A DNA stretch of 64,000 nt from a virus (IMGVR_UViG_3300033121_002338:19342-83341); one strand, 5' to 3'. Positions 6,162 through 63,164 are shown, numbered from the stretch's first letter. Program-made: numbers and translations. The notes: generated from the letters alone by a model not told the origin.

Positions 6162-7784
6162 ATGATCAACTGGCAGAAGACGGAAATCAAGTATGGAATT
6201 ACCAACAATTCAGCCCGTTCCAAGTCCAAAGTCGTCGTCGAATGCGACGAATGTGGGGTTGAAGCCGATAGGATATACTGTTCGGTTAAACAGACACTTA
6301 AACGCACTGCTGGTCGGCTCTTCTGTCATAACTGTGCTACTAAAAGCCAACAATTTAAGGACGGTTGTGCGACACGGGCCGCCAAGAAATGGCAGGATCA
6401 GGAATATATTGCCAATAATTTGAGCGCAGTCCGATCCCCTGAGTATCGTGAACAGAAGCGGTCAGAATCGGCTGAACGTTGGTCGGATGCTGACTTTCGG
6501 GCCAAGATGACCACACACGAGATGATTGAGGCCAGACGCAGAAATAGCAGCATCGCGGCTAAGAACCTCTGGGCGCAACCTGAATACCGAGCTAAGTTGA
6601 TTGGTAAGCTACGCGAGAGGATGATCGAGACCTGGCAGCGTCAGGACTATCGTACCCACATGTCGGCCATTCAATCTGGCAACACTAAATCGTTGTGGGA
6701 AGATGGCGCTTTCGCTGACTGTTTCGACGACGCCTTTAAGGAGAAAATGGCGGCCATCAACAGGGAGATTCTTTCTCGACCCGAAGTGCTGGAGAAGTTG
6801 ACTGAGGCTGGCAGAGCGAATTGGGAAAACGATGAGTATCGCCAGGCGGTGATCGCAGGAAATAAGGCGAGATGGCAGAATGAAGAACACCGCGAGCTTA
6901 TGGCACAGATTAGATCCGGTCAACCACGTCAAAGCACACAACAGCAGTTATTGTATCAATTTCTGGGGGATCTAGGTGTCACTTATTACCGTGAAGGCCA
7001 AGAGACTAAGATTGGCTACTTTGTCTTCGACTGCCTGGTGGAACATCAGGGACTGAAGATCCTGATCGAGTGTCAGGGTGATTACTGGCATTCCTTACCA
7101 GGTTCAGCCAGCCGTGACAAAGCCAAGTTCACCTACGTTGACCGATACTTCCCAGAGTACGAGGTCATGTACATCTGGGAACATGAATTCTATACCAAGG
7201 ACCGGGTCCTAGACAGATTGAAATTGAGACTCGGCTTGTCGGTCGAAACTGTTGATTTCCGTTTCCAAGACATCCAAATTAAAGAGGTCTCGGCGGGTGA
7301 GGTGAAGTCGTTCCTGGACGCCTACCACTACATCGGTAAAGGTAGAGGTGGTAAGACCTATGGGGCTTACCTGGGAGATCTGCTGGTAGCCTGTGTCGTG
7401 TTCAGCCCGCCACTCCGGCAGAACATGGGGGCGTTCGGCGAATTCAGAGAGTTATCTAGATGCTGTATTCACCCGTCTTACCACCGCAAGAACTTCGCTA
7501 GCTGGTTTATCAGCCGGTCGTTGCGGCTGGTCGGCGGGAAGGTGGTGGCCTATGCGGATAGTACGGTTGGTCACACTGGGGCCATCTATAAGGCCTCGAA
7601 CTTCAAACTTCATCATGAGGTGGACCCGGATTATTGGTATGTGGATGGCGATGGTTTTGTGATGCATAAGCGGACGCTATATGGCCGTGCGGTCAAGATG
7701 GGGATGGCCGAGTCGGAGTTTGTTGCCGCTTACGGGTACGTCAAAAAGTTCGGCGGCCCTAAGAGATGTTTTGTGTATGGCTGA
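6162..7784 (+). CDS. Zn-finger/helical-repeat/Vsr-like endonuclease/Mom-like GNAT fusion, copy 1
   Basis: CxxC..CxxC; W-x3-(E/D)-(Y/F)-R repeats; FDC...IECQGDYWH; YHY, ELSR, YAD..GHTGAIYKASNF. Start at ATG 6162 chosen by similarity to the MIDW starts of copies 4 and 5. Confidence 0.85.
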   Translation: MINWQKTEIKYGITNNSARSKSKVVVECDECGVEADRIYCSVKQTLKRTAGRLFCHNCATKSQQFKDGCATRAAKKWQDQEYIANNLSAVRSPEYREQKRSESAERWSDADFRAKMTTHEMIEARRRNSSIAAKNLWAQPEYRAKLIGKLRERMIETWQRQDYRTHMSAIQSGNTKSLWEDGAFADCFDDAFKEKMAAINREILSRPEVLEKLTEAGRANWENDEYRQAVIAGNKARWQNEEHRELMAQIRSGQPRQSTQQQLLYQFLGDLGVTYYREGQETKIGYFVFDCLVEHQGLKILIECQGDYWHSLPGSASRDKAKFTYVDRYFPEYEVMYIWEHEFYTKDRVLDRLKLRLGLSVETVDFRFQDIQIKEVSAGEVKSFLDAYHYIGKGRGGKTYGAYLGDLLVACVVFSPPLRQNMGAFGEFRELSRCCIHPSYHRKNFASWFISRSLRLVGGKVVAYADSTVGHTGAIYKASNFKLHHEVDPDYWYVDGDGFVMHKRTLYGRAVKMGMAESEFVAAYGYVKKFGGPKRCFVYG

Positions 7785-7807
7785 TGATCGTCCACGGGTG
7801 TGTCGCA

Positions 7808-8251
7808 ATGGGTTTCTGTGAATTGGTCGCTCATGGCTTGGTTGCTAGTCTCGAAGCCGCGGTCCCCTGTGTGGTGGAGGCTCCGTCTGTTGAGCCAAGC
7901 GACTGGGCCAATGTTCACATTCAAGGGCTGGGCAATGAATCAGCCACAATCACAGTTTGGAATGGACGATTGTTACTGGCTAAATTCAATAATTCGCTTC
8001 GTTATCGGCAGATACGGCGCGACTGTGCCTATAATTGTTGCGGTCGGATTTTGAATAAGCCGCTGCACGATCCGGAGGCGATCGATTGGATTATTGCTCA
8101 GGTGATTCGTGTGATTTTGAAAGACCATTCTTGTTTATATAATTTCGCGACTGATGCTGCCAGGCGGCAGTTGCTGTGGGAAACATGGCGCTTGGACCAG
8201 AGAAATTTTGCGTTTGGTCGTCCGCACTACTTGCATGAGGGGTTGTTTTGA
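7808..8251 (+). CDS. Hypothetical protein, DP-motif family
   Basis: PLHDPEAIDWIIAQV; directly downstream of copy 1; start uncertain. Confidence 0.55.
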   Translation: MGFCELVAHGLVASLEAAVPCVVEAPSVEPSDWANVHIQGLGNESATITVWNGRLLLAKFNNSLRYRQIRRDCAYNCCGRILNKPLHDPEAIDWIIAQVIRVILKDHSCLYNFATDAARRQLLWETWRLDQRNFAFGRPHYLHEGLF

Positions 8252-9018
8252 ACTGGATTGATCAGATCGGGCAGCATGAATGCAAGGTCTTCTCCCAGAA
8301 CGGCGAGGACGGCGTCATCGAATTTATCTTCGCCAACATTGGCACCACCAATAAACGCTACGTCGAATTCGGTTGCGACGGCGGCCACGAGTGTCAGGCC
8401 CGTTACCTTACTGAACAGTGTGGTTGGTCTGGGTTGCTGATGGATGGGGGTGATTGGGGGCCGTCAGTCACGAAAGAATTTATTACCGCCGAGAACGTCA
8501 ACGACATCTTTATTAAGTATGGTGTTCCGAGAGAACCCGACCTGCTCTCCATCGACATCGACGGCAACGACTACTGGGTTCGTAAGGCCCTGATGGATTA
8601 CCGGCCGCGCGTTATCGTTCATGACTACAATGGTCTGTTCAAGCCGCCCGTTTCCATCACGATTGCCTATGATCCACAGTTCGTGTGGTCCGGTAACGAC
8701 TACGCTACCGCGAGTTTGGCGGCTTTTGTTAAGCTCAACAAGACTATGGGCTATACCTTAGTCTATTGCGAAAAAAATGGGGTGAATGCTTTCTTTATCC
8801 GCGACGACCTAATCAAGGGGCTCAAAATCCCAGCTATGGAGGACCTGTGGCGACCGCTGTTGATCCCGCCACGTGACCCGGTCCATGAGTGGCGAAAGCG
8901 TTGGGTTGAGGTGGTGCTAGAGGGAGGGGTTCTGGTTGAACGGGTTTTGGAGCCCACTCCCTGGTTGGTCGATCATCCGTTTAGAAAGTCTATCCCTGCT
9001 GATCGTCTATTGCGATAA
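8248..9018 (+). CDS. FkbM-like SAM-dependent methyltransferase
   Basis: SQNGEDGVI, YVEFG, GWSGLLMDG, FITAENVN, DLLSIDIDGNDYWV motifs. Confidence 0.8.
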   Translation: MNWIDQIGQHECKVFSQNGEDGVIEFIFANIGTTNKRYVEFGCDGGHECQARYLTEQCGWSGLLMDGGDWGPSVTKEFITAENVNDIFIKYGVPREPDLLSIDIDGNDYWVRKALMDYRPRVIVHDYNGLFKPPVSITIAYDPQFVWSGNDYATASLAAFVKLNKTMGYTLVYCEKNGVNAFFIRDDLIKGLKIPAMEDLWRPLLIPPRDPVHEWRKRWVEVVLEGGVLVERVLEPTPWLVDHPFRKSIPADRLLR

Positions 9019-9055
9019 TTGGGGTGCAATCCAAATTTGGATTGCACCCCAATTA
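9016..9055. repeat. Perfect 40-bp palindrome between convergent genes
   Basis: TAATTGGGGTGCAATCCAAA/TTTGGATTGCACCCCAATTA, no spacer. Confidence 0.9.
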
Positions 9056-9057
9056 GT

Positions 9058-10083
9058 TTATTCCTTGAGGGTGATGCCGAAGGCGGCGTAGTCGTCGCCG
9101 AAGGTGGTGGCGGTGATCTCTTCGCTTGGTGTGTTCACGCCGATTTTGTAAACGACCCAGAAGCCGATGTCGGTGGAGTCGATGGAGCCGTCGTAGCGGT
9201 TGATGGCTGTGACATAGCCGTCCGCCGGTACCAGGTGGTCGTCGAAGTTGTTCAGTTGCATGAAGGCGCCGACCGCCATGTCGCCGTTGGTGTTTACCGT
9301 GATTGCGCCGGTCGTCCATGTTGTGGGGCCGGCACCTTCGCTGGTTGAATTGCTGTTGTAGCCGTCGTGTGGTGGGTTGGAGTTAGCACCGAAACATTCC
9401 AGGATGCCCAGGACAGCCGACGAGTCGCCGGAAGTGGTGACAGTGATCGTCCCTTCGTTGCCGCTACTACCCACTCTCTTATACCACAGTGACAGGCTTC
9501 CTTCGTGGACATTGAGGAAACGGCGGTAACTGCCCACTTGGGTGAAGGCGCCGTCTGCATTGCTTACGGAAACAGTGATATTTGAGTAGGAACTCTTGGT
9601 GGCCACGAATGCCAGGAGCAGCGCCCCTTCGGTCGGTTCCGCGATGCTGTGGTTGATGATACCAGGGCCGAACGACTTGCCATAACTGCTGGCCTGTCCA
9701 GGCTCCACCAGTGGGTCCTCGTCTGAGGGCGGTGGCGGGGGCGGCGGTGGTGGCGGTGGCGGTGGCGGGGGCGGTGGTGGGGGCGGTGGTGGGGGCGGTG
9801 GCGCCGGCGGGGGCGGTGGCGCCGGCGGGGGCGGGGGTGGTGCTATGACTTCTGATTCGGTGAAGGTTGGGCCGCTGTCGCGGTTATAGCCGAGTAAGTG
9901 CAAGCGGTGAGTTTCTAGGAACTGTTGGATGGTTCGGTAGATGCTGCTGGTCTTGTCTATGGTGTCGGCCCACATTCGCACCTGGTTCATGTTGACCCGG
10001 TGCTTGAATGTGATTTCCGCGGCTGTGTGGCCGTTTTCGATGTCAGCTATGATGGCTGCCAGGATACTCAGTTGGTTGGCCAT
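9058..10083 (-). CDS. Polyproline-linker protein with C-terminal beta-rich domain (possible virion surface protein)
   Basis: 80-aa N-domain, 36 Pro in 38 codons, then a Ser/Thr/Gly-rich beta domain. Confidence 0.75.
   Translation of the reverse strand: MANQLSILAAIIADIENGHTAAEITFKHRVNMNQVRMWADTIDKTSSIYRTIQQFLETHRLHLLGYNRDSGPTFTESEVIAPPPPPPAPPPPPAPPPPPPPPPPPPPPPPPPPPPPPPPSDEDPLVEPGQASSYGKSFGPGIINHSIAEPTEGALLLAFVATKSSYSNITVSVSNADGAFTQVGSYRRFLNVHEGSLSLWYKRVGSSGNEGTITVTTSGDSSAVLGILECFGANSNPPHDGYNSNSTSEGAGPTTWTTGAITVNTNGDMAVGAFMQLNNFDDHLVPADGYVTAINRYDGSIDSTDIGFWVVYKIGVNTPSEEITATTFGDDYAAFGITLKE
9727..9840 (-). repeat. Polyproline tract P6-A-P5-A-P25
   Basis: Counted from the sequence: 38 codons, 36 CCN. 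Confidence 0.95.
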
Positions 10084-10096
10084 AGCTCTGTGCCAT

Positions 10097-10122
10097 TGGT
10101 GGTGGTGGTGGTGGTGGTGGTG
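10097..10122 (-). repeat. (CCA)8 microsatellite in the leader of the polyproline gene
   Basis: + strand (TGG)8TG, ending about 14 nt before the ATG at 10083. Confidence 0.9.
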
Positions 10123-10159
10123 CTAACTTGTAACTTTGCACAGAGAACAGAAAGCAATG

Positions 10160-10525
10160 TTAGGATTGCTGTTGGAGGGTTGCTCTGGAGTCTAGGTAAG
10201 CGTGTAGTTCGAAGACGAAGTTGCGCGGGATGTGCATATAGTTGTCGTTTACGATCGCGACCACCGCTTGTCGCACACTGTCGAAACAATTTGGATCGGC
10301 ATAGTCTATGGTGCTGTGAGCGATTCTTCTGCCATCGTAGTAGATTATGATAGTAGGCAAGTGGATATCATATCTCCACTCGTCGAAATAGATACTGATG
10401 CTGAGTGTCGTTCTGCCGAGCGGAACGATAATTCCGTATTTCTCGATTGTGTATGCGAGGTTTTCCTTGTCTAATTCTTCACCCACTCCATGGGCGAGAG
10501 CCGCAATGAGTTGTTCTTCGCTCAT
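10160..10525 (-). CDS. Hypothetical protein, DP-motif family
   Basis: IDYADPNCFDSVRQAV; starts 6 nt after the stop of copy 2. Confidence 0.65.
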   Translation of the reverse strand: MSEEQLIAALAHGVGEELDKENLAYTIEKYGIIVPLGRTTLSISIYFDEWRYDIHLPTIIIYYDGRRIAHSTIDYADPNCFDSVRQAVVAIVNDNYMHIPRNFVFELHAYLDSRATLQQQS

Positions 10526-10531
10526 CTTCGC

Positions 10532-12067
10532 TCATTTTCCATGGTAGAGGAAACACAGTTTTGGTCCTCCCCATTTCTTGATGTACCCATACTCGGCCGC
10601 GAATTCTGACTCGGTGAGTTTTAGATTCACGGCCCGGTTGTATAGGGTTTTCTTGTGCATAACGTAGCCATCCTTGTCCGCATACCAATAATCGGACTGG
10701 GTGGTGTGGTGTAGCTTGAAATTGGAGGCCTTATAGACCGTCCCCAGATGTCCGACGGTGGTGTCGGCGAAAGCGACGACGACTTGATGGTCCTTTACTA
10801 ATCTAGCTAGCCACCAACTGAGCAGATTCTTTTTGTGGTAATTCGGATGGACGCACAGTCTGGCTAATTCGACGGCTCCGTTTGGAAATTGGTGCGCCAT
10901 ATTCTGCCGCGGCAACGGCCCGAAACGGCTAACCGCGATTAGTGTATCGCCGAGCCATAGACCATAATCGGAGCCCCCACGCGAAGCTCCCAGATAGTGA
11001 TACTTGGTTAGGAATTCGTTTGATAGATTGCGGTCTATCCGGGCGTGTTGCAACTGGCCGAATTGATAATCAACCGTGTCCGGCTTGATGCCTAACTTGG
11101 TCTTCAGACGATCCAGAACGCGATCTTTGGCTGAGAATTCGTGTTCCCAGATATACATGATCTCGTATTCCGGGAAGTAGCGGTTTATGTAGGTGAATTT
11201 CGCCCGATCATTCCTTATGGTTTTGGGTAGTGAATGCCAATAATCGCCCTGGCATTCGATCAGCAACGATCGCCCGTGTGCAGTAGCAATTTTACAATCG
11301 AAGACATAAAATCCGACGGTTGTGTCTGGGCCTTCTCGAACGTAATTGACTCCTAGGTTGTCGAGATATTCGTAAAGTGATACTTGTAGACTGCTGATGC
11401 GTGGTTGCTTGCTCCTCCCAACCGCCCATTTTGCCCTCTGGGCTTCGTCTGCCCACAACTCAGTCATTGTCCGCGATATGGCAATCTTAATCCGTTCTCT
11501 GTAGTCGGCATCTTGCCAGCGCCGGTTATTCTCGACACCGACTGCAACTCGTCGTTCTGCAGTGAATGAGTCTTTGATGGACTCGGACACCAATTTCTGG
11601 TATTCTTCTCTGTCCCATAATTCAGATGACAGTTTGGCCCGATTTTCCCTGGCCTGTGGGTCAGCCCAGAATTTCAAGAGTCGTTCGACAATCTCTTTGC
11701 GGTTATCCAAACACCAATCACGTAGCTTGCCGACCATCGCTTCACGGTATGCGCCGCCAGCCCATCTCTCTCGCATTATGATTGAATGGGCCGCTCTGCG
11801 TTCTGGGGTCCATGCCTTTGTGATCCCACTGCTTACAGCAGCGGCGTACTCTTGGTCTTGCCACAATCGGCGTGAGTCGGCTGAGAGATCTCTGGTGGAG
11901 GAACGGTCGTAGCTTCCCCTCGCTCCGGCTTCTTTTCTGCTGCATCCCCCACATTTGAAGATGCCGTGGTTCCGTTTACGGTTGGCGTTGGCACTGTAGG
12001 AACGAATCTTGATTGGAGTTTGACAGAGGTCACAGCCGATGATGACGAATGGCCCGTTGTGTGACAT
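10532..12067 (-). CDS. Zn-finger/helical-repeat/Vsr-like endonuclease/Mom-like GNAT fusion, copy 2
   Basis: CDLC..CGGC; W..EY repeats; FDC..IECQGDYWH; YHY, ELAR, FAD..GHLGTVYKASNF. Confidence 0.85.
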   Translation of the reverse strand: MSHNGPFVIIGCDLCQTPIKIRSYSANANRKRNHGIFKCGGCSRKEAGARGSYDRSSTRDLSADSRRLWQDQEYAAAVSSGITKAWTPERRAAHSIIMRERWAGGAYREAMVGKLRDWCLDNRKEIVERLLKFWADPQARENRAKLSSELWDREEYQKLVSESIKDSFTAERRVAVGVENNRRWQDADYRERIKIAISRTMTELWADEAQRAKWAVGRSKQPRISSLQVSLYEYLDNLGVNYVREGPDTTVGFYVFDCKIATAHGRSLLIECQGDYWHSLPKTIRNDRAKFTYINRYFPEYEIMYIWEHEFSAKDRVLDRLKTKLGIKPDTVDYQFGQLQHARIDRNLSNEFLTKYHYLGASRGGSDYGLWLGDTLIAVSRFGPLPRQNMAHQFPNGAVELARLCVHPNYHKKNLLSWWLARLVKDHQVVVAFADTTVGHLGTVYKASNFKLHHTTQSDYWYADKDGYVMHKKTLYNRAVNLKLTESEFAAEYGYIKKWGGPKLCFLYHGK

Positions 12068-12132
12068 CTCTGGCTGCCCGTCAAGGAAAAACTATTGTAG
12101 GATTTTTACCCCAATACATGGCTGGAGGCTGT

Positions 12133-12207
12133 ATGCCAGGGTTCAACATCATGCCGTATGGCGGCGGCTATTCAGCCCAAGGCCCGTCAAATACGGCTGA
12201 GACGAGG
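12133..12207 (+). pseudogene. Orphan 5' stub of the tail-tube gene (25 codons)
   Basis: Encodes MPGFNIMPYGGGYSAQGPSNTAETR, identical to the N-terminus at 13747; GGAGG RBS at 12124-12128; then runs into unrelated sequence. Confidence 0.85.
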
Positions 12208-12293
12208 GGATCTTCCAAATTGATGTTGAAGAAAGCGAAGTTGTGCGGCTTGTCCGCCCAGTTGAGCAGCACTTGTGTGCTTCCGTTATTCAT
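12208..12293 (-). pseudogene. Truncated start of a small gene downstream of copy 3
   Basis: ATG 12293 reads MNNGSTQVLLNWADKPHNFAFFNINLEDP, then joins the reverse complement of the tube stub. Confidence 0.4.
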
Positions 12294-12311
12294 ACCCCGG
12301 TATAATTTCTT

Positions 12312-13691
12312 CTAGCTCTTCTGGTGTAGGAAACACAGTTTTGGTCCTCCCCATTTCTTGATGTACCCATATTTGTCAGCGAATTCGGCCTCGGTGAGTT
12401 TCAGGTTTACAGCACGGTTATAGAGGGTCTTCTTGTGCATCACGTAGCCATCTTTATCAACATACCAATAGTCAGACTGGGTGGTGTGGTGTAGTTTGAA
12501 ATTAGCTGCCTTGTAGACAGTGCCCAGATGCCCCACTGTGGTGTCGGCGAAGGCCACAATGCTCCTATAGCCAGACATCTTGATCGCACGCGAAACCAGC
12601 CAACTTGCGAAATTATGCTTGTGGTAGGAAGGATGGATGCATAATCTGGATAACTCGATCGCGTCGGCTGGGAGTGCTTGATGGTTCTGCCGAATTAGTC
12701 GGCTAAAGAGCACGCACCCAATCACTTGTTGTTGGTGTCTGGCTACAATCGCTCGGCCACCACGTGAACCACCAATATAGTGGTATTGATCCAGGAATGA
12801 TCTCACTTCCTTGCTGTCAGCCTCAGCAACTTCGATCTCCTTGAACGAGAAGGTGACAGTTGGGATAGCGATGCCGAGTTTTAGTTTCAGCCTATCGAGG
12901 ACACGGTCTTTGGTGCCGAATTCGTGCTCCCAGATATACATGATTTCGTGGTCTGGGAAGTATCGATTGATGTAGGTGAATTTGGCCCGGTCCCTAGCTG
13001 CAGCGCCTGGTAATGAATGCCAATAATTACCTTGGCATTCGATGAGGAGTTTTCGGTCGTTAGGGCGTTTGACTAGGCAGTCGAATACATAATGGCCGAT
13101 CGCAGTTGCTGGACCTTCCCGTTCGTAACTTACTCCCAGATCGCCTAGGAATGAGTATAACGCTATCTGCAGGCCTGAAATGCTCGGTTGGTTGGCTCTG
13201 ATTACGGCCATCCGCATTCGGTATTCATCATCGGCAAAGCGTTTTCTGGCTGCCTCGCCAACAGCTAATCTATAATTCGGGTCTTCGAGGTACCGCTGGT
13301 GAAGACCAGCGGAGATTCTAGCACGCGCCTCTAGACTGAGCAAGGCCTCAGTTACTCCGGCTGAGACTCTTTTCTTGTACCCATCGTCTTTCCATAATTC
13401 GCTGGTCCTGGTCGATTGTGCTGCTCTATATTCATCGGTCGTGTTGGCGGCCGTAGATGTGGCAGTGATCTTAGCTCTGAATTCTGGCCGGCTCCACAAT
13501 GCCTTGCTCTGTGCCGATCTCTTCTCTGGGGTGTGGCTAAATTTGCCAGCCTTGCCCGCCTTGATGGTGCAGCAGTGGTGGCAGGTGTAGACTCCATTGC
13601 GTTTTACGTTCGCGTTGTAAGTGTCGCCTCTGACTTCCCCCGACCATCCGCAAGCACAATTCGCCGGCTTCTTCTGTTTGGATGGTCTCAC
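12312..13691 (-). CDS. Zn-finger/helical-repeat/Vsr-like endonuclease/Mom-like GNAT fusion, copy 3
   Basis: GGAG-5 nt-GTG start at 13691; CACG..CHHC; FDC..IECQGNYWH; YHY, ELSR, FAD..GHLGTVYKAANF. Confidence 0.85.
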   Translation of the reverse strand: MRPSKQKKPANCACGWSGEVRGDTYNANVKRNGVYTCHHCCTIKAGKAGKFSHTPEKRSAQSKALWSRPEFRAKITATSTAANTTDEYRAAQSTRTSELWKDDGYKKRVSAGVTEALLSLEARARISAGLHQRYLEDPNYRLAVGEAARKRFADDEYRMRMAVIRANQPSISGLQIALYSFLGDLGVSYEREGPATAIGHYVFDCLVKRPNDRKLLIECQGNYWHSLPGAAARDRAKFTYINRYFPDHEIMYIWEHEFGTKDRVLDRLKLKLGIAIPTVTFSFKEIEVAEADSKEVRSFLDQYHYIGGSRGGRAIVARHQQQVIGCVLFSRLIRQNHQALPADAIELSRLCIHPSYHKHNFASWLVSRAIKMSGYRSIVAFADTTVGHLGTVYKAANFKLHHTTQSDYWYVDKDGYVMHKKTLYNRAVNLKLTEAEFADKYGYIKKWGGPKLCFLHQKS

Positions 13692-13746
13692 GGTGGCTCC
13701 GAGAAAATCTAATATAGTAACTTTCCAGGTCGAGCAGAGGGCGAAA

Positions 13747-14331: not shown

Positions 14332-14348
14332 GGGTTTGTAGGGTAAAT

Positions 14349-14380
14349 CTAAGAGGGAGGCCAAATGGCCTCCCTCTTAG
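14349..14380 (+). terminator. Hairpin between tube 1 and tube 2
   Basis: CTAAGAGGGAGGCC-AAAT-GGCCTCCCTCTTAG followed by CGTATTTATT. Confidence 0.7.
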
Positions 14381-54275: not shown

Positions 54276-57200
54276 ATGCCTAGCAACTGGCTAGCCTTTG
54301 ATAGGATCAGAGCCCTCGCCCGCCAAGGCCGAATCTATAGTTTCGAGAGGGTCTTCCAAGACCAATCCAATCTCGACCGCCTCACCGCTGGCGGCGACTT
54401 CCTAGATTTTAACAATCAAGCGGCGATCCTTGACCAGACCAATCTGCAGATTAATCGCCTTGAGCGCTATAAGGATTATGAGCAGATGGACCAGACCGGG
54501 GAGGTCTCCCTGGCCCTGGATCTCTATGCTGATGAGGCTTCACTGGTCGATCCGGAGCGGAAGCATACTCTACTGATCCGGGCCAGGAACCGGCGTCTGA
54601 AGCGCGAACTCGAAGACCTATTCTTCAACATCCTGCAGTGGGATCAATACTGCCGGCCATCGGTCCGCTACCTGTGCAAGTACGGCGATATGCCTTTTGA
54701 AATCATTCTGGATAAGAACCGTTCGGCGGTCACTAGTTTGAAATTCATGAATGTTTACAACTTCACCAGAATTGAGACCAGACACGGCGACCTCATTGGC
54801 TTCTTCTATATGGATGCCATGTGGCCTAAGCCACAATTCCTGCATCCATGGCAGGTCATGCACCTACGACTGACCTCATTCGAGAATATCTATCACCCCT
54901 ACGGGCGGTGCTGCGATCTCGACTCGTATGTTGATACCCCTACTGGTCATAAGAAGCTGCGGGATGTGCAGGTTGGCGATTATGTGATGTCCTGGAATGG
55001 GTATGCAGCGTCTCCCACCAAGGTTCTGGCCACCGCCAACAGTGGCACTAAGGAGACGGTGATCTTCCGCACCAAGCATCGCGAGATTAGACTGACCCCT
55101 GAACACCCGGTACTGGCGGTAGTCAAGGATTGCTACGTTGATACCAAGTTCGGGCCGAAGAGGGATACATCTACCAAGCGGTGGGTACTCGCCAAGGACC
55201 TGAAGGCGGGCGACAAACTCGTCCTGCCGCGATATGACCGGCCTGGCACTCTGTGCGAGGGGCGGCAGGTTCCGCTATTTGCCGACAAGTCGGTGACTGA
55301 ATCCACGCATACTGGTCATTGTTTCTCGTTCCCGGAGTGTGTGGATGCGGGCTTCGCTAAGTTGATGGGATTCCTAATCGGTGACGGTTGGACCTCTGCC
55401 AACGGGAAAATTCTGTATTTTGCCGAAGGAGAACACCAGGACATCAATCGCAAGTACATCGACATCATCAGGGGGTATGGGTACGACCGGGAACCTGGCC
55501 ACAACGCTGGCGAGAACAGTGAATGCGGCAACTTCCAGTTCTCTAGTAGCGAATTGACTCAGACGGTAGTCGCCATGGGGCTGGTGGGTCGTTGTTGGGA
55601 GAAGCGGATTCCGGAGTGGGTCTTTACCGCCAAACCGGAGGTCCAATTGGCCTTCATTGAAGGTCTGGTCGATTCCGACGGCTCGGTGAACATCGACAAG
55701 TGGGACTGCGAGAGGTTTCAATTCGAGAACACTAGCGAAGGACTGGTACGGGATCTCAAGCACCTGCTCGACCGAATGGGCTACAAGTGCGGGAACGTCA
55801 GTAAGCGGAACCACCCAAACGACAAAACTGTAATCCACGGCAAGGTCTACGACCGTCACGACTCCTGGATCGTCTACTGGTATGACTCGAAGTTGCCGAC
55901 CGGTGATATCGAGCACATGGGCCGTCGCCGGACCCGCTACAAGCATAATTCGCCGACCTATCTCCTAGAGACGATCCTGGAGATAGCGGACGGCGGAGAG
56001 GTGGAGGTCGGTGATATCCAGGTCGAGAACCACGCCAACTTCGTTTGCGGTGGCGTAGTGGTGCACAACTCGATCCTGGACGGAGGACGGAAAGCCTTCA
56101 AACAGTTGAGACTCATGGAGGACGCCGCACTCATTTACCGGATCACTCGGGCGCCGGAGAAGCGGAAGTTCACTATCCCAGTCGGTATGATTCCGCCGAA
56201 GGAAGTGCCAGAATACATGCAGGGGATCGCCCGGAACTTCAAGCGGCAGCGTTTCTACAACCCCTCCACCGGCACATTCGACGAGCGATACAGTCCGCTC
56301 ATCCAGGAGGATGACTTCTTCCTGCCGCGCCGCCCAGACGGCTCCGGGCCGGACGTGGATGTCTTGCCGGGCGGGGAGAACGTTGACAAGATCGCCGATA
56401 TCGAATACTTCAAGAAGAAGATGATCGCCCCGATGAAGATCCCCTTCGCCCGGGTGGGGATCGGGGAGGGGGGCGGGGAGGCCTCCGAGAAGAGCCTCAG
56501 CCAGTCCCACTCAGAATTTGCTAAATCCGTACAGTGGGTCCAGCGGGAGGTGGCCGTTGGCCTGACCAAGGTGGCGATCGTCCACCTGGCCCTGCGCGGC
56601 TTCAGCGTCGAGGACCTCAAGGGTTTCGAGGTCGCTTTGACCGCAACCTCCGCCATGGAGGAGCTGTACCGGATCGAGACCTGGCAGACCCGGGCCGGGG
56701 TTATGGCGGACCTGAAGGATCTTGGTTGGTTCCCCAAAGAGTGGATTGTTACTAACTTTACTGACCTGTCCCCGGATGAGATCGAAGAACTGAAGGAGAT
56801 GGAGTCCGAGGCTCTTGGCGGTGGTGGCGGCGGAGGCGGCGGAGGCGGCGGAGGCGGGCTAGATATTCCGCCGCCTCCCGGTGGCGACCCGGCGGCCGGT
56901 GAGCCGCCACCGGACCCGGCGGCCGAGGCGGCAGCGATGACCGATCTTAACGGCGACAACAGTCTGCCGGAATCCAAACTACCGGGGTTCGACTGGGCGG
57001 CAGAGCGGCGGTTACTTAAAGAATATCGTCGCCAAGGGCAAGTGGAGAGAGCGGCTGAGATGGTTGGTAGATGGGCTGATCGGTTGGGTAAATTGGGGAG
57101 TGCTGAGGAGCGAGTGTTCTCCAGTGGCTATGGGCACATTATGGAGATGAAGGAATTGGACGGTTTGTGCGGTGGCGAGCCGCCGGTGACTCTGATGACG

Positions 57201-57410
57201 GAGGCGATGCTGGAGGGGCGGCTGCCGGTGGTTCCTGATCCGACGGATGATCCGAATTTGTTGTTTGCTTGGTCGGTGCCTAAGGAGACCCGTGACGAAG
57301 TGATCCGTGAGGTTTATGAGGCTATTATGGGTGTAGTGCCTAGCGGCGCTATGGTTGGTGATGAGGAGATCACTACATCGGACCTGCCTCTCCGTGTGAG
57401 TGGTTTATAA
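54276..57410 (+). CDS. Portal protein (gp20-like) with intein (657 aa after splicing)
   Basis: ALDLYADE, YLCKYGD, PYGR/SILD, QLRLMEDAALIYRITRAPEKRKF, EDDFFLP, DIEYFKKKM. Confidence 0.92.
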   Translation: MPSNWLAFDRIRALARQGRIYSFERVFQDQSNLDRLTAGGDFLDFNNQAAILDQTNLQINRLERYKDYEQMDQTGEVSLALDLYADEASLVDPERKHTLLIRARNRRLKRELEDLFFNILQWDQYCRPSVRYLCKYGDMPFEIILDKNRSAVTSLKFMNVYNFTRIETRHGDLIGFFYMDAMWPKPQFLHPWQVMHLRLTSFENIYHPYGRCCDLDSYVDTPTGHKKLRDVQVGDYVMSWNGYAASPTKVLATANSGTKETVIFRTKHREIRLTPEHPVLAVVKDCYVDTKFGPKRDTSTKRWVLAKDLKAGDKLVLPRYDRPGTLCEGRQVPLFADKSVTESTHTGHCFSFPECVDAGFAKLMGFLIGDGWTSANGKILYFAEGEHQDINRKYIDIIRGYGYDREPGHNAGENSECGNFQFSSSELTQTVVAMGLVGRCWEKRIPEWVFTAKPEVQLAFIEGLVDSDGSVNIDKWDCERFQFENTSEGLVRDLKHLLDRMGYKCGNVSKRNHPNDKTVIHGKVYDRHDSWIVYWYDSKLPTGDIEHMGRRRTRYKHNSPTYLLETILEIADGGEVEVGDIQVENHANFVCGGVVVHNSILDGGRKAFKQLRLMEDAALIYRITRAPEKRKFTIPVGMIPPKEVPEYMQGIARNFKRQRFYNPSTGTFDERYSPLIQEDDFFLPRRPDGSGPDVDVLPGGENVDKIADIEYFKKKMIAPMKIPFARVGIGEGGGEASEKSLSQSHSEFAKSVQWVQREVAVGLTKVAIVHLALRGFSVEDLKGFEVALTATSAMEELYRIETWQTRAGVMADLKDLGWFPKEWIVTNFTDLSPDEIEELKEMESEALGGGGGGGGGGGGGGLDIPPPPGGDPAAGEPPPDPAAEAAAMTDLNGDNSLPESKLPGFDWAAERRLLKEYRRQGQVERAAEMVGRWADRLGKLGSAEERVFSSGYGHIMEMKELDGLCGGEPPVTLMTEAMLEGRLPVVPDPTDDPNLLFAWSVPKETRDEVIREVYEAIMGVVPSGAMVGDEEITTSDLPLRVSGL
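54909..56069 (+). mobile_element. Intein in portal protein (387 aa, LAGLIDADG)
   Basis: Starts CCDLDSYVDTPTG after PYGR; MGFLIGDG and IEGLVDSDG; ends VVHN before Ser. Confidence 0.93.
56817..56858 (+). repeat. Poly-Gly (14) linker in the portal C-terminal extension
   Basis: 14 consecutive GGN codons followed by a Pro-rich segment. Confidence 0.9.
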
Positions 57411-57901: not shown

Positions 57902-60820
57902 ATGAGCAAGCCGGTTGAAGCGGTGACTATGGACAGCCGCAAGTTCCTTAGCCAACTAAATGATTCTGCTCAATCGAAGGTGAGCTTCTTCGAAGAGCGT
58001 GTTCAGGCCTTGGGTAACGAGGTCGGCAAGAACTGGCGTCTTGCTGCTCTGCACGCCAAAGAATTGTTTATCGAAGACCGCACCAACCACACTTACCTGG
58101 TTGCTGAGCATAGCAGCAACCAGGGCAAAGTAACCATCGCTAACATCCGGCCCATCCAGATCGTGGAAGGCGAGAAAAAGGGCATCTTCACCGAAAGTGC
58201 CATCAAGCTCATCACGGCCATCGAAAACAACGACCAGAAGGAAATGGCCGCTTCCTTCAACCGCCTCAAATTCCACCGCTTCAGCGCCCGGACGATCCCG
58301 GAGTCGGGGGTCATCCGCTGCCGAGACGGGGTACAGCGGCGTGTCACGATCTCCCCGGAAAACTCACTCGAAGAGAACGTGAAAGACCGGCTGGTGACTT
58401 GCATCGTCGAATCGCTCCGTGACCGGGTGATCGTCGAGAACGGTCACGTGGTCGCCGGCTACTTCGGCCAAGACCAAGTCAAGCTGCCAGTCACCAAATG
58501 GGCCTCCCGTAAACTGGTGGCTCGCCGGATGCTGGAGAGCGCCAAGAACGCCTACTGGAGCCAAGGCTTCCAGGGCCGCGTTCACAATACCGCCAGACTA
58601 GTTTCCGAGGGCAAGATCGAGGAAGCGGTTGCCGGCCTGGCCGGCTTCCTGGACGAAATGGAGGAATTCACCCTCCTCACTCGGAACCAGATCCAGACTC
58701 TGATCGAGAACACCCTCGCCGCTAACGGTGTCTTCAACCAGCAATTGTGCAACGACACCGCCACCCTGTTCTACCGCACCAACTTGAAGGTGAATAAGAG
58801 CAAGATCGTTGAGGAATGGAAGAAGATCTCTCGCCGGGCCGAGCACCCGGTCCTGGCCGAGAACGTAAACATTCTTGAACGCGCCCGGAACTTTGAATCG
58901 ACCTATGACAAATTTTTGACCTTGGTCTTCGAATCGATTTCTAACCGTGAGGTCGCCGCCGAAGCCCTGGCCACCACCCTCAACGTGCTGCGGGACAAGA
59001 CCCCGAAGATCCGTGAGTCGCACGACCTGTCCACCAAACTGTCCGGTCTGATTAACCGGCTGAAACAGCGTGACTTCGACGACGCTGCAATCTACGAGGC
59101 CGAGGACCTGATCGCCACCATCCAGGAAGAATTGGGGGCCAACGAGACCCTCAACAATTTCGACCAGATGCCGGGTGATAACGATCCGCTCGGTGCCGGC
59201 CAAGCCATGGATGCCGGCGGCGGCGCTGCCCCGGGCACACCGGTTATCAACATCAACAGCCCGTTGATCCAGATCGGCGGTAGCTCGGCTGCCGGCACCC
59301 CGGATACCCCTCCGGCCGGTCCGGACGCCGCGGCCGGTGGTGGCGACCCGGAATTGGAGGCCCTGCTGGGCGGCGGTGCCGCCGCGGGGGCCGGTGCTCC
59401 AGCAACCCCACCACCGCCGGCTGCCGGCGCCCCCGCTCCTGGCGCCGCTCCCGCCCCGGGTGCTGCCCCAGCCCCACTGATGCAAGGTCGGGAACGAGTG
59501 GGCAGCCTGCTCGGCGAGGACCTGGATGACCCATACGCCCTGAAGCCAAACGAGAAGGTTTCTACCGAAGGGGTGCGGTTCACCGACTACGGTGCTCCGG
59601 TCATCACCGACGAAGGGGATCTTGACCGCATTATCCGGATCATGCAGAAATTGGCCACCGAGCATAAGCTCGCCGGCCGAGCGCTGCAAGAGAACTTGAC
59701 TAACATGGCCAAGGCTACCCTCAAGGTGGTCGGGCTACGGATTCCAGAAGCCAAAATGCCGAAAGCCCTGGAACAGGTCATTAACGCTTTTAATGAGGAA
59801 TGGGAGAAGCCCTGGCTCAAGGATAATGATAAGAAGGACGACGGTGAGGGTTGCGAGGAAGGGGAAGACTGCGACGACGAGGGCGTGGCCGAGAACCAAT
59901 ACAAGACCCCGGTCCGTCGCCCACGCGGCTTCGCCAGGTCAAACTATGCTCACGAGGAGCCAGGCAAGACCCGCTCGGAAGGCCGGATTGACCGCAAGGC
60001 CGCGATCGCCGAGGGCATCAATTGGGGCCAACAGCAAGAGGACGCCATCCTGGGCGAGATGGCCGGCGTGAAATTCATTCTGGATCACGGTGGTAGCACC
60101 GAGGTCGAGCCGGTTATCTTGTCGGAGGACGGGGCTGTTGAGATCCCGATCCCAACTGAACTGGCCCAAGACGCCTACGCAGCGGCCAATCTTGTCGAAG
60201 GAGATGGCTCGCGGTTTGTCCGCTGGCTGGCCGGCTCTCTGGAGCAGCTCCGCCCGATGTCTTCCGCCGAAGACCGGGCGTTGGAGGAGGCGGTGGCCAA
60301 AATCACCGCCGGCCCGGACGGCACCCTGTCGGTCGAAGTGACTCCGGACGTCGAAGTCGGCCAGATGGACGACGGCAGCGGCCAGATGGAGGAGCAACAA
60401 CCGGACGACGGTATGGCCCCGGTGGACGCCACCGAACCCGCTCAACCGGAACCGGCCCAAGACCAAATGGGCGGTGGCGAGAGCGGTCTGGACACCGAAA
60501 CCAGCATGCCGAACTTCGAGGAACCAGCCGCCGCTCCGGCCGAGCCTGTTGCCCAAAAGCCAATGGCTCCGGCTAAGCCGGCCGCCAAGCCCACCGCTCC
60601 GGCCGCGGGCGAAGACGATGGTGTCCACTTCGAGGATAAGGACCTGACCAGTCCGGCTTCCTCGAAGTACACTGCCCCGCTGCGGGACAACAAGCGGAAG
60701 ATGCCGGACGTGAAACTGCCGAGTAAGACCAACGACAAGCTCGAAGGCATTGGACCTGACCTGAAGGTCGATGACGGTAGCGGTACCAACCCACCCACCG
60801 CGAAGAAAGGCGAAGAATAA
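57902..60820 (+). CDS. Large prohead core/scaffold-like protein, 972 aa
   Basis: Between portal and protease; helical N-half, Ala/Pro/Gly and acidic low-complexity linkers; GAGG RBS. Confidence 0.6.
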   Translation: MSKPVEAVTMDSRKFLSQLNDSAQSKVSFFEERVQALGNEVGKNWRLAALHAKELFIEDRTNHTYLVAEHSSNQGKVTIANIRPIQIVEGEKKGIFTESAIKLITAIENNDQKEMAASFNRLKFHRFSARTIPESGVIRCRDGVQRRVTISPENSLEENVKDRLVTCIVESLRDRVIVENGHVVAGYFGQDQVKLPVTKWASRKLVARRMLESAKNAYWSQGFQGRVHNTARLVSEGKIEEAVAGLAGFLDEMEEFTLLTRNQIQTLIENTLAANGVFNQQLCNDTATLFYRTNLKVNKSKIVEEWKKISRRAEHPVLAENVNILERARNFESTYDKFLTLVFESISNREVAAEALATTLNVLRDKTPKIRESHDLSTKLSGLINRLKQRDFDDAAIYEAEDLIATIQEELGANETLNNFDQMPGDNDPLGAGQAMDAGGGAAPGTPVININSPLIQIGGSSAAGTPDTPPAGPDAAAGGGDPELEALLGGGAAAGAGAPATPPPPAAGAPAPGAAPAPGAAPAPLMQGRERVGSLLGEDLDDPYALKPNEKVSTEGVRFTDYGAPVITDEGDLDRIIRIMQKLATEHKLAGRALQENLTNMAKATLKVVGLRIPEAKMPKALEQVINAFNEEWEKPWLKDNDKKDDGEGCEEGEDCDDEGVAENQYKTPVRRPRGFARSNYAHEEPGKTRSEGRIDRKAAIAEGINWGQQQEDAILGEMAGVKFILDHGGSTEVEPVILSEDGAVEIPIPTELAQDAYAAANLVEGDGSRFVRWLAGSLEQLRPMSSAEDRALEEAVAKITAGPDGTLSVEVTPDVEVGQMDDGSGQMEEQQPDDGMAPVDATEPAQPEPAQDQMGGGESGLDTETSMPNFEEPAAAPAEPVAQKPMAPAKPAAKPTAPAAGEDDGVHFEDKDLTSPASSKYTAPLRDNKRKMPDVKLPSKTNDKLEGIGPDLKVDDGSGTNPPTAKKGEE

Positions 60821-61659
60821 TGCTGCCGAGCCGACGGACTCTGGCCCGGATCGTCACTCCGGGCCAGACGAACCCATCGCGGACGCTCCAAGAAGGCCGC
60901 CTGGCAGAGCGGGATGGCCTGCGGATCAATCGCACCCTGATCGCCGAAACTGGGATTATCCCAGCCGGCCTGCAGTTGATTCGTGATACCTCGTCCTTTC
61001 AGGTGATCGAGGCTAAGACCGCCATCAAAGAAGGGATCGGCGGCCGTGAAGAGCCGGTCATGAAGATCAGTGGCCTGATCCAGAACGGCGACACCGAGAA
61101 CGCCAACGGCCGTTTCTACAGCACCCGCGATGTGCTCGAACCGGCCGTCCGCGGTATTCAGGAGGATGTCAGCGGCCGGGCCGTCCCCGGCGAGTTTGAC
61201 CATCCATCGGATGCCAAGATCCACCTAGACCGGATCAGCCATCTGATGACCAAGGTTTGGATGGACGGCAAGAAGGTGTATGGTGAAGCCGAAGTCATGC
61301 ACCGCCTCCCATGCGGCGCCATGCTGCGCGGCCTCTTCGAGCACAAAATGCGCGTCGGGATTTCTTCACGCGGCGTCGGCGACATGGAAGTGGTTGAACA
61401 CAATGGGCACGATGTCTACCGAGTCATGCCTGGGTACGCTTTTGTGACTTGGGATATCGTTGCAGAACCTTCCGTGCATGGTGCCATCCTAAATATTCAG
61501 GAAGGGGTGAACAAGCGGATTCGCCCCCTCCAAAAGCAACGCCAACTGCTGGGCGAAGATGCCTATCAGAAAATGCTCGTAAACGAAATCAACGATTATT
61601 TTGACCTTGATAAGAAGAAAGTGACCGTCCCAGTCCGGGCCACTTTCAAGAAGCGATAA
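60820..61659 (+). CDS. Prohead maturation protease (T4 gp21-like)
   Basis: NANGRFYS, PGEFDHP, ISHLMTK, GISSRGVG, TWDIVAEPSVHGA. Confidence 0.92.
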   Translation: MLPSRRTLARIVTPGQTNPSRTLQEGRLAERDGLRINRTLIAETGIIPAGLQLIRDTSSFQVIEAKTAIKEGIGGREEPVMKISGLIQNGDTENANGRFYSTRDVLEPAVRGIQEDVSGRAVPGEFDHPSDAKIHLDRISHLMTKVWMDGKKVYGEAEVMHRLPCGAMLRGLFEHKMRVGISSRGVGDMEVVEHNGHDVYRVMPGYAFVTWDIVAEPSVHGAILNIQEGVNKRIRPLQKQRQLLGEDAYQKMLVNEINDYFDLDKKKVTVPVRATFKKR

Positions 61660-61660
61660 C

Positions 61661-61689
61661 TTGACAGAACCCAGTAGATGTGCTATCAT
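61661..61689 (+). promoter_or_regulatory. Sigma70-type promoter for fusion copy 5
   Basis: TTGACA-17 nt-TATCAT with extended -10 TG; AGGAG RBS before ATG 61707. Confidence 0.8.
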
Positions 61690-61706
61690 AGTGGTAGGAG
61701 ATCACT

Positions 61707-63164
61707 ATGATAGACTGGGCACTCTCAACCACCACTCCCGATTCGGTCCACAACAAAGACAAAATAATTGTGGTTTGTGAGTTGTGTAAACAACCCAGAC
61801 CGCAATTATATGCGGTGGCTAAGCGAAAGACCACTCATCATTGCATGTCTTGCGTCAAGACCAAAAGCCGCCACAAAACCGGGCAGATGGTTGAATACAA
61901 ATGCATAGATTGCCCTGTCACCAAGACCCAGCAGTATCGACCGGATCGATTCGCTAACTGGCGTTGCCACCACTGTGCTATGGTCCAGGGACACAAAGAC
62001 GGTAAATTCACAATCACATCCAACAAACCATCGGCGGCTGGGCGGCAAAAGTTGGCAGAATCGGCCAGAGCCAGGTGGGCCGATCCTGAATACCGACAGA
62101 AGTGGGCGGAAACCCGTGCGTCTACCAAAGAGAAGCGTAGTGAATTCTCCAGATCGTTGTGGGCTGATGAGTCTAGACTGCAAAAGCTATCGGAGTCTCT
62201 AAGATCTATCTGGATGACTGAAGAGTATAGGAGAAAACAGCGGGCCGGTTATACAGACCCTGTTAAGCAGTTAATGGCCCAGCGGCGAGCTGCCCAAGCC
62301 GGGCAACCCAGTTCTATTCAACTACAATTATATAAATATCTGGATGACCTGGGCATTACATACCTCAAAGAGGGGCCGGGGACGACCGTCGGATATTACG
62401 TGTTCGATTGTCTGGTCCAGCGTAGCGACGGTAAGAAATTATTAATCGAATGCCAGGGGGACTACTGGCATTCGTTGGCCAACACCCAGAAGAATGACCG
62501 TTCCAAGTTCACCTACATCGATCGTTACTTCCCTGACCATGAGATCATGTATGTCTGGGAGCACGAGTTTTATGCCAAAGACCGGGTCCTGGACCGATTG
62601 AAGTTGAAGTTTGGACTTGGGATCCCGTCAGTTGGTTTCGATTTCTCCGACATTGAACTCGGGGACGTGCCGACCAAGGATCTCAGATCTTTCCTTGATG
62701 CCTACCATTACATCGGTAAAGGCCGGGGCGGCAAGGTGGTTGGTGCCTACCATGGTGCAGAATTAGTTGGGTGTGTGGTGTTCAGCCCGCCCGTTAGGCA
62801 GAACCTTGGGGATGTAACTGAGCTTTCCCGCTTTTGTCTCCACCCATCGTACCACAAGAAGAATTTCGCTAGTTGGTTGATCAGCAAGGCCATTCGTGGG
62901 GTCGCCGGGGTTGTGGTGGCTTATGCCGATCGCACCGTTGGCCATACCGGCACGATTTACAAGGCCTGTGGTTTTAAACTGGACCATACGGTCCCGGCCG
63001 ATTATTGGTACGTGGATAGTGACGGCTACGTCATGCACAAGAAGAGCTTGTATAATCGGGCTGTCAAAAACGGCCTCGCTGAGGCCGAATTCGCGGCCCG
63101 GTATGGATATAGCAAACACTACGGTGGTGAGAAATTGTGCTTCATAAGGACCTGTCGTGGCTAG
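61707..63164 (+). CDS. Zn-finger/helical-repeat/Vsr-like endonuclease/Mom-like GNAT fusion, copy 5
   Basis: Two CxxC..CxxC units; FDC..IECQGDYWH; YHY, ELSR, YAD..GHTGTIYKACGF. Confidence 0.85.
   Translation: MIDWALSTTTPDSVHNKDKIIVVCELCKQPRPQLYAVAKRKTTHHCMSCVKTKSRHKTGQMVEYKCIDCPVTKTQQYRPDRFANWRCHHCAMVQGHKDGKFTITSNKPSAAGRQKLAESARARWADPEYRQKWAETRASTKEKRSEFSRSLWADESRLQKLSESLRSIWMTEEYRRKQRAGYTDPVKQLMAQRRAAQAGQPSSIQLQLYKYLDDLGITYLKEGPGTTVGYYVFDCLVQRSDGKKLLIECQGDYWHSLANTQKNDRSKFTYIDRYFPDHEIMYVWEHEFYAKDRVLDRLKLKFGLGIPSVGFDFSDIELGDVPTKDLRSFLDAYHYIGKGRGGKVVGAYHGAELVGCVVFSPPVRQNLGDVTELSRFCLHPSYHKKNFASWLISKAIRGVAGVVVAYADRTVGHTGTIYKACGFKLDHTVPADYWYVDSDGYVMHKKSLYNRAVKNGLAEAEFAARYGYSKHYGGEKLCFIRTCRG

Follow-up and report, generated by a model that had tools for sequence, protein, structure and literature searches.

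The closest described relatives of the genes analysed here are Hef-type homing endonucleases of phages. Hef itself was described in the T4-related phage U5 (Sandegren et al. 2005, as cited in PMC3296691), and known Hef-like proteins include F-LimIII, VII, VIII and X of Dickeya phage LIMEstone1, Hef34 of Campylobacter phage NCTC12673, and the families phrog_559 and phrog_3339. I-Bth0305I, a homing enzyme carried by a phage, has an extended DNA-binding region, and its dimer acts on a target almost 60 bp long (PMC3943268). It is described as intron-encoded, and no Mom-like domain is recorded for it, the PDB entry covering the catalytic domain only. Mom of phage Mu is a free-standing GNAT that modifies adenine at N6 with Gly-tRNA(Gly) as donor; it acts at many sites and blocks many nucleases (PMC13219725). 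Finally, Iyer, Anantharaman, Krishnan, Burroughs and Aravind (2021, Viruses 13:63, PMC7824862) described Mom-REase fusions in jumbo phages and proposed that momylation shields the phage while the nuclease attacks other DNA. Apart from that study, our literature search found no paper tying Hef to a GNAT, Mom-like or acetyltransferase domain.

We analysed a 64,000-nucleotide stretch of DNA (the window) from an uncultured huge phage. Megablast of its first 25 kb against GenBank phages returned no matches, so that collection contains no close cultured relative. Five ORFs free of internal stops were confirmed: HEF1 (6162..7784, plus strand, 540 aa), HEF2 (10532..12067, minus strand, 511 aa), HEF3 (12312..13691, minus strand, 459 aa), HEF4 (52782..54230, minus strand, 482 aa) and HEF5 (61707..63164, plus strand, 485 aa). 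Alternative starts are possible at GTG 6147 for HEF1, GTG 54233 for HEF4 and ATG 13766 for HEF3, the last of which would overlap the start of a tail tube gene at 13747. Contigs at least 99% identical to this DNA, from independent studies of soil, freshwater and wastewater, span the copies and their junctions, and the gene arrangement is therefore not an assembly artefact. The 83,341-bp record that contains the window holds eight full-length copies plus two partial or divergent ones, and eight full copies in 83 kb is an unusual density compared with known Hef-like genes.

All five ORFs are intact paralogs of one architecture, as an earlier note on this DNA had claimed: a zinc ribbon, helical repeats of the form W-x3-(E/D)-(Y/F/H)-R, a Vsr-like nuclease and a Mom-like GNAT tail. 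The motifs quoted in that note are invariant in the five-protein alignment (S-x2-Q-x2-LY, FDC, IEC(Q/H)G(D/N)YWH, YHY, E(L/C)xR, AD-x-TVGH-x-G-x-(I/V)YKA and YWY-x-D). Over their whole length the proteins are 43-50% identical in pairwise comparisons. The note's description of the N-termini as variable also held up, mean pairwise identity being 26% there, compared with 62% for the nuclease and 56% for the Mom-like domain. The repeat motif occurs 11 times in the five N-termini, compared with a mean of 0.03 and a maximum of 1 in 2000 shuffles; HEF1 to HEF5 carry 5, 1, 1, 2 and 2 repeats, respectively, those of HEF1 reading W-x3-EYR. One CxxC pair is present in each of HEF1 to HEF4 (C-x-C plus CHHC in HEF3) and two in HEF5, which has two zinc ribbons. 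The W-x3 repeats correspond to no Pfam family, and Pfam searches of the five N-termini gave no NUMOD hit, NUMOD3 included, at E-values up to 5. This variable part of the proteins presumably serves targeting.

The nuclease domain (approximately 6900-7286 in HEF1, 11042-11425 in HEF2, 12822-13211 in HEF3, 53316-53699 in HEF4 and 62295-62666 in HEF5) was compared with known enzymes by profile and by structural model. Its best sequence match was I-Bth0305I (3R3P; E = 2.9e-7, residues 11-95 of 105). The same enzyme was the best structural match to a model with pLDDT 85 (Z 13.3, rmsd 3.0 Å, 95/98 residues), followed by the DUF559 protein 3HRL (Z 10.8) and Vsr (1CW0, Z 10.7). This ranking was made with VIA-align; Foldseek hits for the domain alone were weak, with E-values of 2.5e-3 or worse. 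Pfam REase_MTES_1575 scored 22-28 bits, below its threshold of 38.2. The EDxHD motif is present (P0003 numbering: E218, D222, which is N in HEF3, H225 and D234), together with D204 and K237, and this D-E-D-H-D-K set is intact in 108 of 124 family members. As modelled, the domain is thus a Vsr-like restriction-endonuclease fold, in agreement with the earlier note, and lies nearest to I-Bth0305I, the EDxHD homing-endonuclease prototype, although the HEF genes are free-standing and not intron-encoded.

Full-length P0001, P0002 and P0005 matched the homing endonuclease families phrog_559 and phrog_3339 with E-values of 1e-19 to 1e-23, the alignments covering most of each protein. These proteins therefore belong to the Hef family and do not represent a new fusion. 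Hef34 matches both families too, and it also matches the Mom-like phrog_1384 (E = 6.6e-11), so the caveat that Hef-like proteins might share the C-terminal domain proved justified. BFVD fold matches included homing endonucleases of Campylobacter phage CP21 and of PA5oct, and the number of phage records in which tblastn detected Hef-like genes ranged from 126 to 418 with the query used. Known Hef-like genes share with the HEF genes the Vsr-like nuclease and GNAT/Mom-like core, the variable N-termini, and the habit of occurring as multiple free-standing copies adjoining virion genes such as tail tube and capsid genes. The HEF proteins are nevertheless only about 26% identical to Hef34.

The tail occupies approximately 7239-7781 in HEF1, 10535-11080 in HEF2, 12315-12854 in HEF3, 52785-53348 in HEF4 and 62619-63161 in HEF5. 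All five tails scored 51-68 bits against Pfam PF25680 (Mom), for which the cut-off is 27.1, and hhalign of the tail with Mu Mom gave a probability of 93.6%. Mu Mom (8BV8) was the top PDB match by sequence (E = 4e-7) and ranked first in Foldseek (E = 1.8e-9), with generic GNATs at 1e-5 or weaker; the AF2 model of HEF3 had a pLDDT of 88. By sequence and predicted fold, the tail is a genuine Mom relative, as the earlier note had it, and it forms an integral domain of this Hef branch, strongly conserved throughout. It differs from Mu Mom in being fused behind a nuclease, and no Com-type regulator was seen with the HEF genes.

Individual residues of the tail were compared with those of Mu Mom. H58, Y59, R111, S124, D149 and Y159, on which the activity of Mu Mom depends (PMC7261163; PMC13219725), are retained in HEF1-5 and in 114 of 124 relatives. 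At the position of R151, which is essential in Mu (R151A has no detectable activity; PMC13219725), the HEF family has an invariant Thr, within a motif AD-x-T-V-G-H where Mu has AD-E-R-C-G-R; the position of Mu R154 is His. W48, a dimer contact in Mu Mom, is also lost. The HTH-like insertion between the last strands of Mu Mom (residues 175-209) is essential in Mu; in the tail model two helices (420-429 and 434-440) lie between strands in the equivalent place, a correspondence of position and not a residue-level superposition.

Because of the change of R151 to Thr and the loss of W48, the chemistry may differ from that of Mu or be absent. The domain might accordingly be catalytically silent, a module for DNA binding, base flipping or dimerisation in enzymes that cut and never modify. 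Other Hef-like proteins bear on this reading: those of Campylobacter phages and Straboviridae have Y59L, those of Straboviridae also D149N, and both fall below the Pfam Mom threshold, which the HEF branch passes with its fuller active site (H, Y, R, S, D, Y). As these proteins keep the domain, it can persist without a full Mom active site, and the dimeric binding of I-Bth0305I to its long target makes an additional DNA-contact or dimer module plausible. However, the six Mom residues are invariant or nearly so in those 114 relatives although elsewhere in the domain identity has fallen to about 56%. Unless the domain binds a ligand or is catalytic, this pattern is difficult to account for, and the family has an invariant T-x-G-H of its own where Mu has R-C-G-R. 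We consider a silent domain a serious alternative, if somewhat improbable. We slightly favour a tail that still modifies DNA, binding an activated acyl or aminoacyl donor together with a flipped-out adenine. By analogy with Mu Mom, glycine from Gly-tRNA(Gly) would yield N6-carbamoylmethyl-dA; the chemistry given in the earlier note needs updating to include this donor. Such modification might be local, at the enzyme's own site, or wider; otherwise the tail would be a DNA-binding or base-flipping accessory. No tRNA genes were found within the 64-kb window.

The genomic neighbourhood of each copy was then considered. HEF1 lies directly downstream of the tail sheath gene (3235..6081, plus strand) and a terminator with a 16-bp stem (6087-6123). 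It is part of a 7.7-kb stretch between the sheath and tube genes (6082..13746), which in addition to HEF1-3 contains four ORFs without a known family (7766-8251, 8248-9018, 9058-10083 and 10160-10525). HEF3 has as its head-to-head neighbour the first gp19-like tail tube gene, tube0 (13747..14331, plus strand; Pfam Phage_T4_gp19), which is intact. HEF4 is head-to-head with the portal gene (54276..57410, plus strand) across a gap of about 45 bp, and HEF5 lies directly downstream of the prohead protease gene (60820..61659, plus strand). The claim that every copy abuts a virion gene is thus essentially right and stands for these four; HEF2 is head-to-head only with an orphan fragment of a tube gene, 25 codons long. 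A minus-strand ORF at 13879-14364 was rejected as a gene, being an antisense shadow of the tube gene. Fewer sigma-70 promoter sites were found in 5900-14500 than in shuffled sequence. Contigs from RNA libraries overlap parts of HEF1-3, which is no proof of transcription.

The orphan fragment (12133..12207, plus strand) encodes a peptide 100% identical to that of the first 25 codons of tube0 (13747-13821), and the two differ at 14 of 75 nucleotides, all synonymously. It was left behind on entry of the HEF3 cassette, and tube0 is likely the target gene of both the HEF2 and HEF3 lineages. Such a duplicated gene start with synonymous differences looks like a homing footprint and supports insertion by homing. 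The recoding further points to sequence change as a possible sole source of immunity for the donor allele. Targeted end-peptide searches found no duplicated gene end at the portal 5' or protease 3' sites; tblastx self-comparison of the contig was too noisy for this purpose.

All five sites are polymorphic among related phages and empty in most. The sheath-to-tube stretch is missing from about 20 related loci, and in relatives without a copy tube0 begins 15-45 bp past the sheath stop codon. Of 52 loci compared at the portal 5' site, about 10 carry a copy. No copies occur in a complete 408-kb relative or in two large fragments, and two other records have one each. These presence/absence patterns bear out the earlier proposal of a mobile element. 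Among near-identical population contigs we found no joint that skips a copy, but such contigs are blind to rare variants and permit no inference on copy-less alleles in those populations.

Copies from this genome are scattered on the family tree (six label changes for eight rows), and the nearest homologs of each in other phages occupy the same sites. The nearest homolog of HEF1, P0112, lies directly after a sheath gene. HEF2 clusters with P0008, P0009, P0010 and P0012 with 99% support, and P0008 is head-to-head with a tube gene. P0026, the nearest homolog of HEF3, lies between sheath and tube genes, and at the portal site of locus L054 a 62%-identical counterpart of HEF4 has the same place and orientation. 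HEF5 is sister to P0110 (99% support), which follows a Peptidase_S77 protease gene. The alternative reading in the earlier note, a battery of DNA-modifying paralogs, fits poorly because the copies are scattered, site-tied lineages with closer kin in other phages than in their own genome. Domesticated paralogs, fixed and vertically inherited with a regulatory or DNA-processing role in packaging or the expression of virion genes, would agree with the finding that all copies are intact and lie within the structural module. Absence from most relatives at all five sites and scatter on the tree leave that reading with a negligible probability.

The five genes are very probably free-standing Hef-type homing endonuclease genes of at least four or five lineages, each specialised for a site beside a conserved virion gene. 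In the mechanism we propose, the variable zinc ribbon and helical repeats would bind a long target that lies in the neighbouring gene of an element-free relative infecting the same cell, and the Vsr-like EDxHD nuclease, as its homology implies, would then cut it. Through recombinational repair the rival genome would acquire the nuclease gene with its own terminator and promoter region, along with a recoded part of the target gene. Observed for this last step are the duplicated tube gene start, with its synonymous differences, and the polymorphism among relatives.

The systems of Iyer et al. have the same architecture, occur in the same kind of phage and embody the same cut-and-protect idea, so the restriction-modification-like fusion put forward in the earlier note is real as architecture but not new: both the nuclease-Mom fusion and the idea are already published. 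In their account the nuclease is a restriction component directed against host or superinfecting DNA, whereas site-specific lineages and a footprint point to homing endonucleases in the case of the HEF genes. Applied here, single-chain restriction-modification would mean broad momylation of the genome and a nuclease of low site specificity degrading unmodified host or superinfecting DNA, with the genes serving defence or offence. It has been stated for jumbo phages, and both the well-conserved Mom active-site residues and the many sites and nucleases affected by Mu Mom speak for it. Yet each HEF lineage is bound to one insertion site by one conserved gene, a target-gene 5' duplication is present, the closest nuclease is a long-target homing enzyme, and the variable N-termini resemble DNA-binding modules. 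Close relatives are free of copies, as is the complete 408-kb relative, and a single genome-wide modification would not need eight or more copies. We therefore hold restriction-modification to be very unlikely.

Within the homing interpretation, the N-terminal module might also deliver the Mom-like domain to the enzyme's own long target, where one or a few adenines would be modified from a charged tRNA and the allele carrying the element made immune to its own nuclease. This proposal is speculative and unlikely.

The genes described here are in themselves ordinary, further members of the Hef-type family with an architecture already in print. Their value is as a test case, offering several intact copies, a nearly complete Mom active site and defined neighbouring target genes; for one copy the presumed target exists in two natural alleles, as the start of the tube gene and as a recoded duplicate of it. 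Since Gly-tRNA(Gly) is now known as the donor, the role of the Mom-like half of Hef-type enzymes is directly testable with the HEF sequences. If modification of an enzyme's own target were found, it would constitute a site-directed system in which one polypeptide both cuts and protects in the service of homing, and tRNA-dependent DNA modification would for the first time have a role beyond anti-restriction.

We examined the five paralogs HEF1 (6162-7784, + strand), HEF2 (10532-12067, -), HEF3 (12312-13691, -), HEF4 (52782-54230, -) and HEF5 (61707-63164, +), for which an earlier note had claimed a single shared architecture. All five open reading frames were intact at these coordinates, and every motif quoted for them was invariant in their alignment (A1). 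Pairwise identity among the five proteins was 43-50% and divergence was uneven: the nuclease (mean identity 62%) and the tail (56%) are far better conserved than the N-terminal part (26%). The W-x3-[ED]-[YFH]-R repeat was found 11 times in the five N-termini, compared with 0.03 expected from shuffles, and the counts of repeats and of CxxC pairs varied from copy to copy. A Pfam search found no family matching these repeats, NUMOD3 included.

The source viral record is 83,341 bp long, with an estimated completeness of 23%; outside the window, on its upstream side, this contig carries another three full-length HEF copies, along with two that are partial or divergent. As contigs at least 99% identical, from soil, freshwater and wastewater studies, span the HEF junctions, the arrangement is real. 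Near-identical sequence (at least 99%) covering 5900-14500 was present in freshwater, riverine, soil, wastewater and anaerobic-digester metagenome runs from at least 7 studies; the strain is widespread, whether geographically or ecologically.

The nuclease domain reached the Pfam family REase_MTES_1575 only below threshold. A profile of this domain alone matched I-Bth0305I (3R3P), the enzyme on which the EDxHD family of homing endonucleases is founded as prototype, with E = 2.9e-7. Similarly, the best structural alignment of the domain model (pLDDT 85) was to 3R3P (Z 13.3, rmsd 3.0 Å, 95/98 residues), followed by DUF559 (Z 10.8) and E. coli Vsr (Z 10.7), and the proposal of a Vsr-like nuclease was thus borne out. 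The presumed catalytic set, D204, E218, D222, H225, D234 and K237 in HEF3 numbering, was retained in 108 of the 124 family members.

The suggested kinship of the tail with Mu Mom and the GNAT fold was likewise upheld. Each of the five tails scored 51-68 bits with Pfam PF25680 (Mom), whose cut-off is 27.1. The profile built from all five aligned with Mu Mom at 93.6% probability, and the one built from 68 family sequences picked up 8BV8, the crystal structure of Mom, at E = 4e-7. When the AlphaFold2 model of HEF3 (pLDDT 88) was compared with the PDB by Foldseek, 8BV8 came first (E = 1.8e-9), with ordinary GNATs ranking behind.

Full-length window proteins matched PHROG 559 and 3339, both annotated as homing endonucleases. 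Campylobacter phage NCTC12673 has a Hef-like protein, Hef34, whose annotation notes similarity to phage U5 Hef, and it matched these two families as well. Alignment to Hef-like genes by tblastn covered both nuclease and tail. The earlier note had cautioned that Hef-like proteins might already hold a related C-terminal domain; indeed, Hef34 matched the Mom-like PHROG 1384 (E = 6.6e-11). Relatives of Hef34 occurred in 418 phage records, some annotated as 'putative nuclease/acetyltransferase protein'. LIMEstone1 carries several Hef-like gene copies beside structural genes (PMC3296691), and HEF1-5 share with these their multiple copies and their placement. The fusion of nuclease and Mom-like domain, and the idea that it cuts and protects, are already in print (Iyer et al., PMC7824862). 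The earlier interpretation was sound as to architecture, Mom relative, Vsr-like nuclease and mobility, but it is not new.

Mu Mom activity requires H48, Y49, R101, S114, D139 and Y149 (Karambelkar et al. 2020, PMC7261163). Silva et al. (2026, PMC13219725), who solved 8BV8, confirmed these as H58, Y59, R111, S124, D149 and Y159. According to their results, Mom takes glycine from Gly-tRNA(Gly) and places it on adenine N6 in double-stranded DNA, after which an on-base rearrangement yields 6-NcmdA. They also added R151 and an HTH-like insertion, both essential, together with W48, which serves in dimerisation, and W181 (PMC13219725). The six residues were retained in all five window copies and in 114 of 124 relatives. 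The R151 position is an invariant Thr in the HEF family, where the motif reads AD-x-T-V-G-H compared with AD-E-R-C-G-R in Mu Mom; W48 is absent, and the HEF3 model predicts two helices at the site of the Mu insertion. Hef34 differs from the window copies in carrying Y59L. Two Straboviridae Hef-like proteins combine Y59L with D149N, and all three proteins, Hef34 included, fall short of the Pfam Mom model. The two Straboviridae genes, in Yersinia phage JC221 (L104:808-2343) and Acinetobacter phage Stupor (L105:943-2370), lie between gp24 (capsid vertex) and gp23 (major capsid).

Because the six residues are kept here and partly lost in Hef34 and the Straboviridae proteins, the window's branch is the most Mom-like portion of the Hef superfamily; from the branches that are more degenerate it is evident that a complete Mom site is not required for the domain to be retained. 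Those degenerate sites of classical Hefs, together with the R151T change, would suit a non-catalytic tail that serves in DNA binding or base flipping, a reading we hold as a serious though lesser possibility. The strong conservation of the Mom site points instead to ligand binding or catalysis, and we lean slightly towards a tail that truly modifies DNA.

Occupancy was assessed at 33 related loci, found by searching with the sheath protein (identities of 50-83%). The tube gene begins 15-45 bp past the sheath stop in about 20 of these, compared with a 7.7-kb interval in the window that holds HEF1-3 and four unknown ORFs. A Hef-type gene lies upstream of portal in about 10 of 52 related loci and is absent from the rest, and the site after the protease gene is likewise occupied in some loci and empty in others. 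A complete 408-kb relative and two ~157-kb fragments had no HEF copy; two other large records had one each. The copies are thus fixed at none of the five loci, and the proposed mobile element withstood the refuting test that the earlier note had set for it. Within the sheath-to-tube insert, an ORF of unknown family (9058-10083, -) contains a low-complexity tract (9712-9855) of about 10 overlapping copies of a G-rich 9-12 nt unit (GGCGGTGGNGG).

Copies from this genome were scattered over a tree of 124 family members, with 6 label changes for 8 rows. Relatives of each copy were found at corresponding sites: HEF1-like P0112 directly after a sheath gene, HEF2-like P0008 head-to-head with the first tube gene, HEF3-like P0026 between sheath and tube genes but on the opposite strand, a HEF4-like gene (L054, 62% identical) head-to-head with portal, and HEF5-like P0110 after a Peptidase_S77 protease gene. 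The copies are site-specific lineages passed between phages and did not arise by expansion of a gene within this genome.

The first 25 codons of the tube gene (13747-13821) are repeated at 12133-12207, head-to-head with HEF2; the peptide is identical and 14 of 75 bases differ, all synonymously. On the simplest reading, HEF2 would formerly have faced an intact tube gene, and a HEF3 cassette would later have entered near tube codon 25, carrying its own recoded gene start. The published single-chain restriction-modification reading supposes protection across the whole genome and a nuclease that lacks specificity; it fits poorly with both this homing footprint and the site-tied lineages, and we consider it improbable. 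Since the duplicated target is recoded synonymously, donor immunity could stem from sequence alone; chemical self-protection would then be less needed, though it may still occur.

Cassettes placed after the sheath gene start with a strong terminator hairpin (6087-6123 in the window). The final 36 codons of the sheath gene recur (83% identical) at C1:1728-1835 of the genome, 17.5 kb upstream of the window, where they adjoin a truncated Hef-type gene; this second copy resembles a footprint left by homing at the sheath 3' site. A minus-strand 161-aa ORF (13879-14364) was rejected as a gene, being the antisense shadow of a third gp19-like tube gene (13747-14331, +). The terL start also occurs as an orphan copy of 15 codons (48421-48465; 10/15 residues identical to working terL), separated from working terL (49286-51289) by a zinc-ribbon gene (48471-49289) absent in all four relatives examined; the site (48421-49289) is another gene-start replacement. 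The portal gene contains an intein with a LAGLIDADG endonuclease domain (54900-56069, portal residues ~209-598; Pfam Intein_splicing, Hint and LAGLIDADG_3), and in most related phages portal residues 213 and 599 are adjacent. Among relatives, portal is broken after about residue 90 by ~470 bp in some (L088-L100), and in others (L053, L059, L072) 1.0-1.3 kb separates terL residues 176 and 177; these interruptions are further insertion hot spots, introns or inteins.

HEF1-5 are thus very probably Hef-type, site-specific homing endonuclease genes. They add members to a known family and are of modest significance beyond the question of the Mom-like domain. Now that Mom's chemistry is known to depend on tRNA, this domain has become straightforward to assay in Hef-type enzymes.
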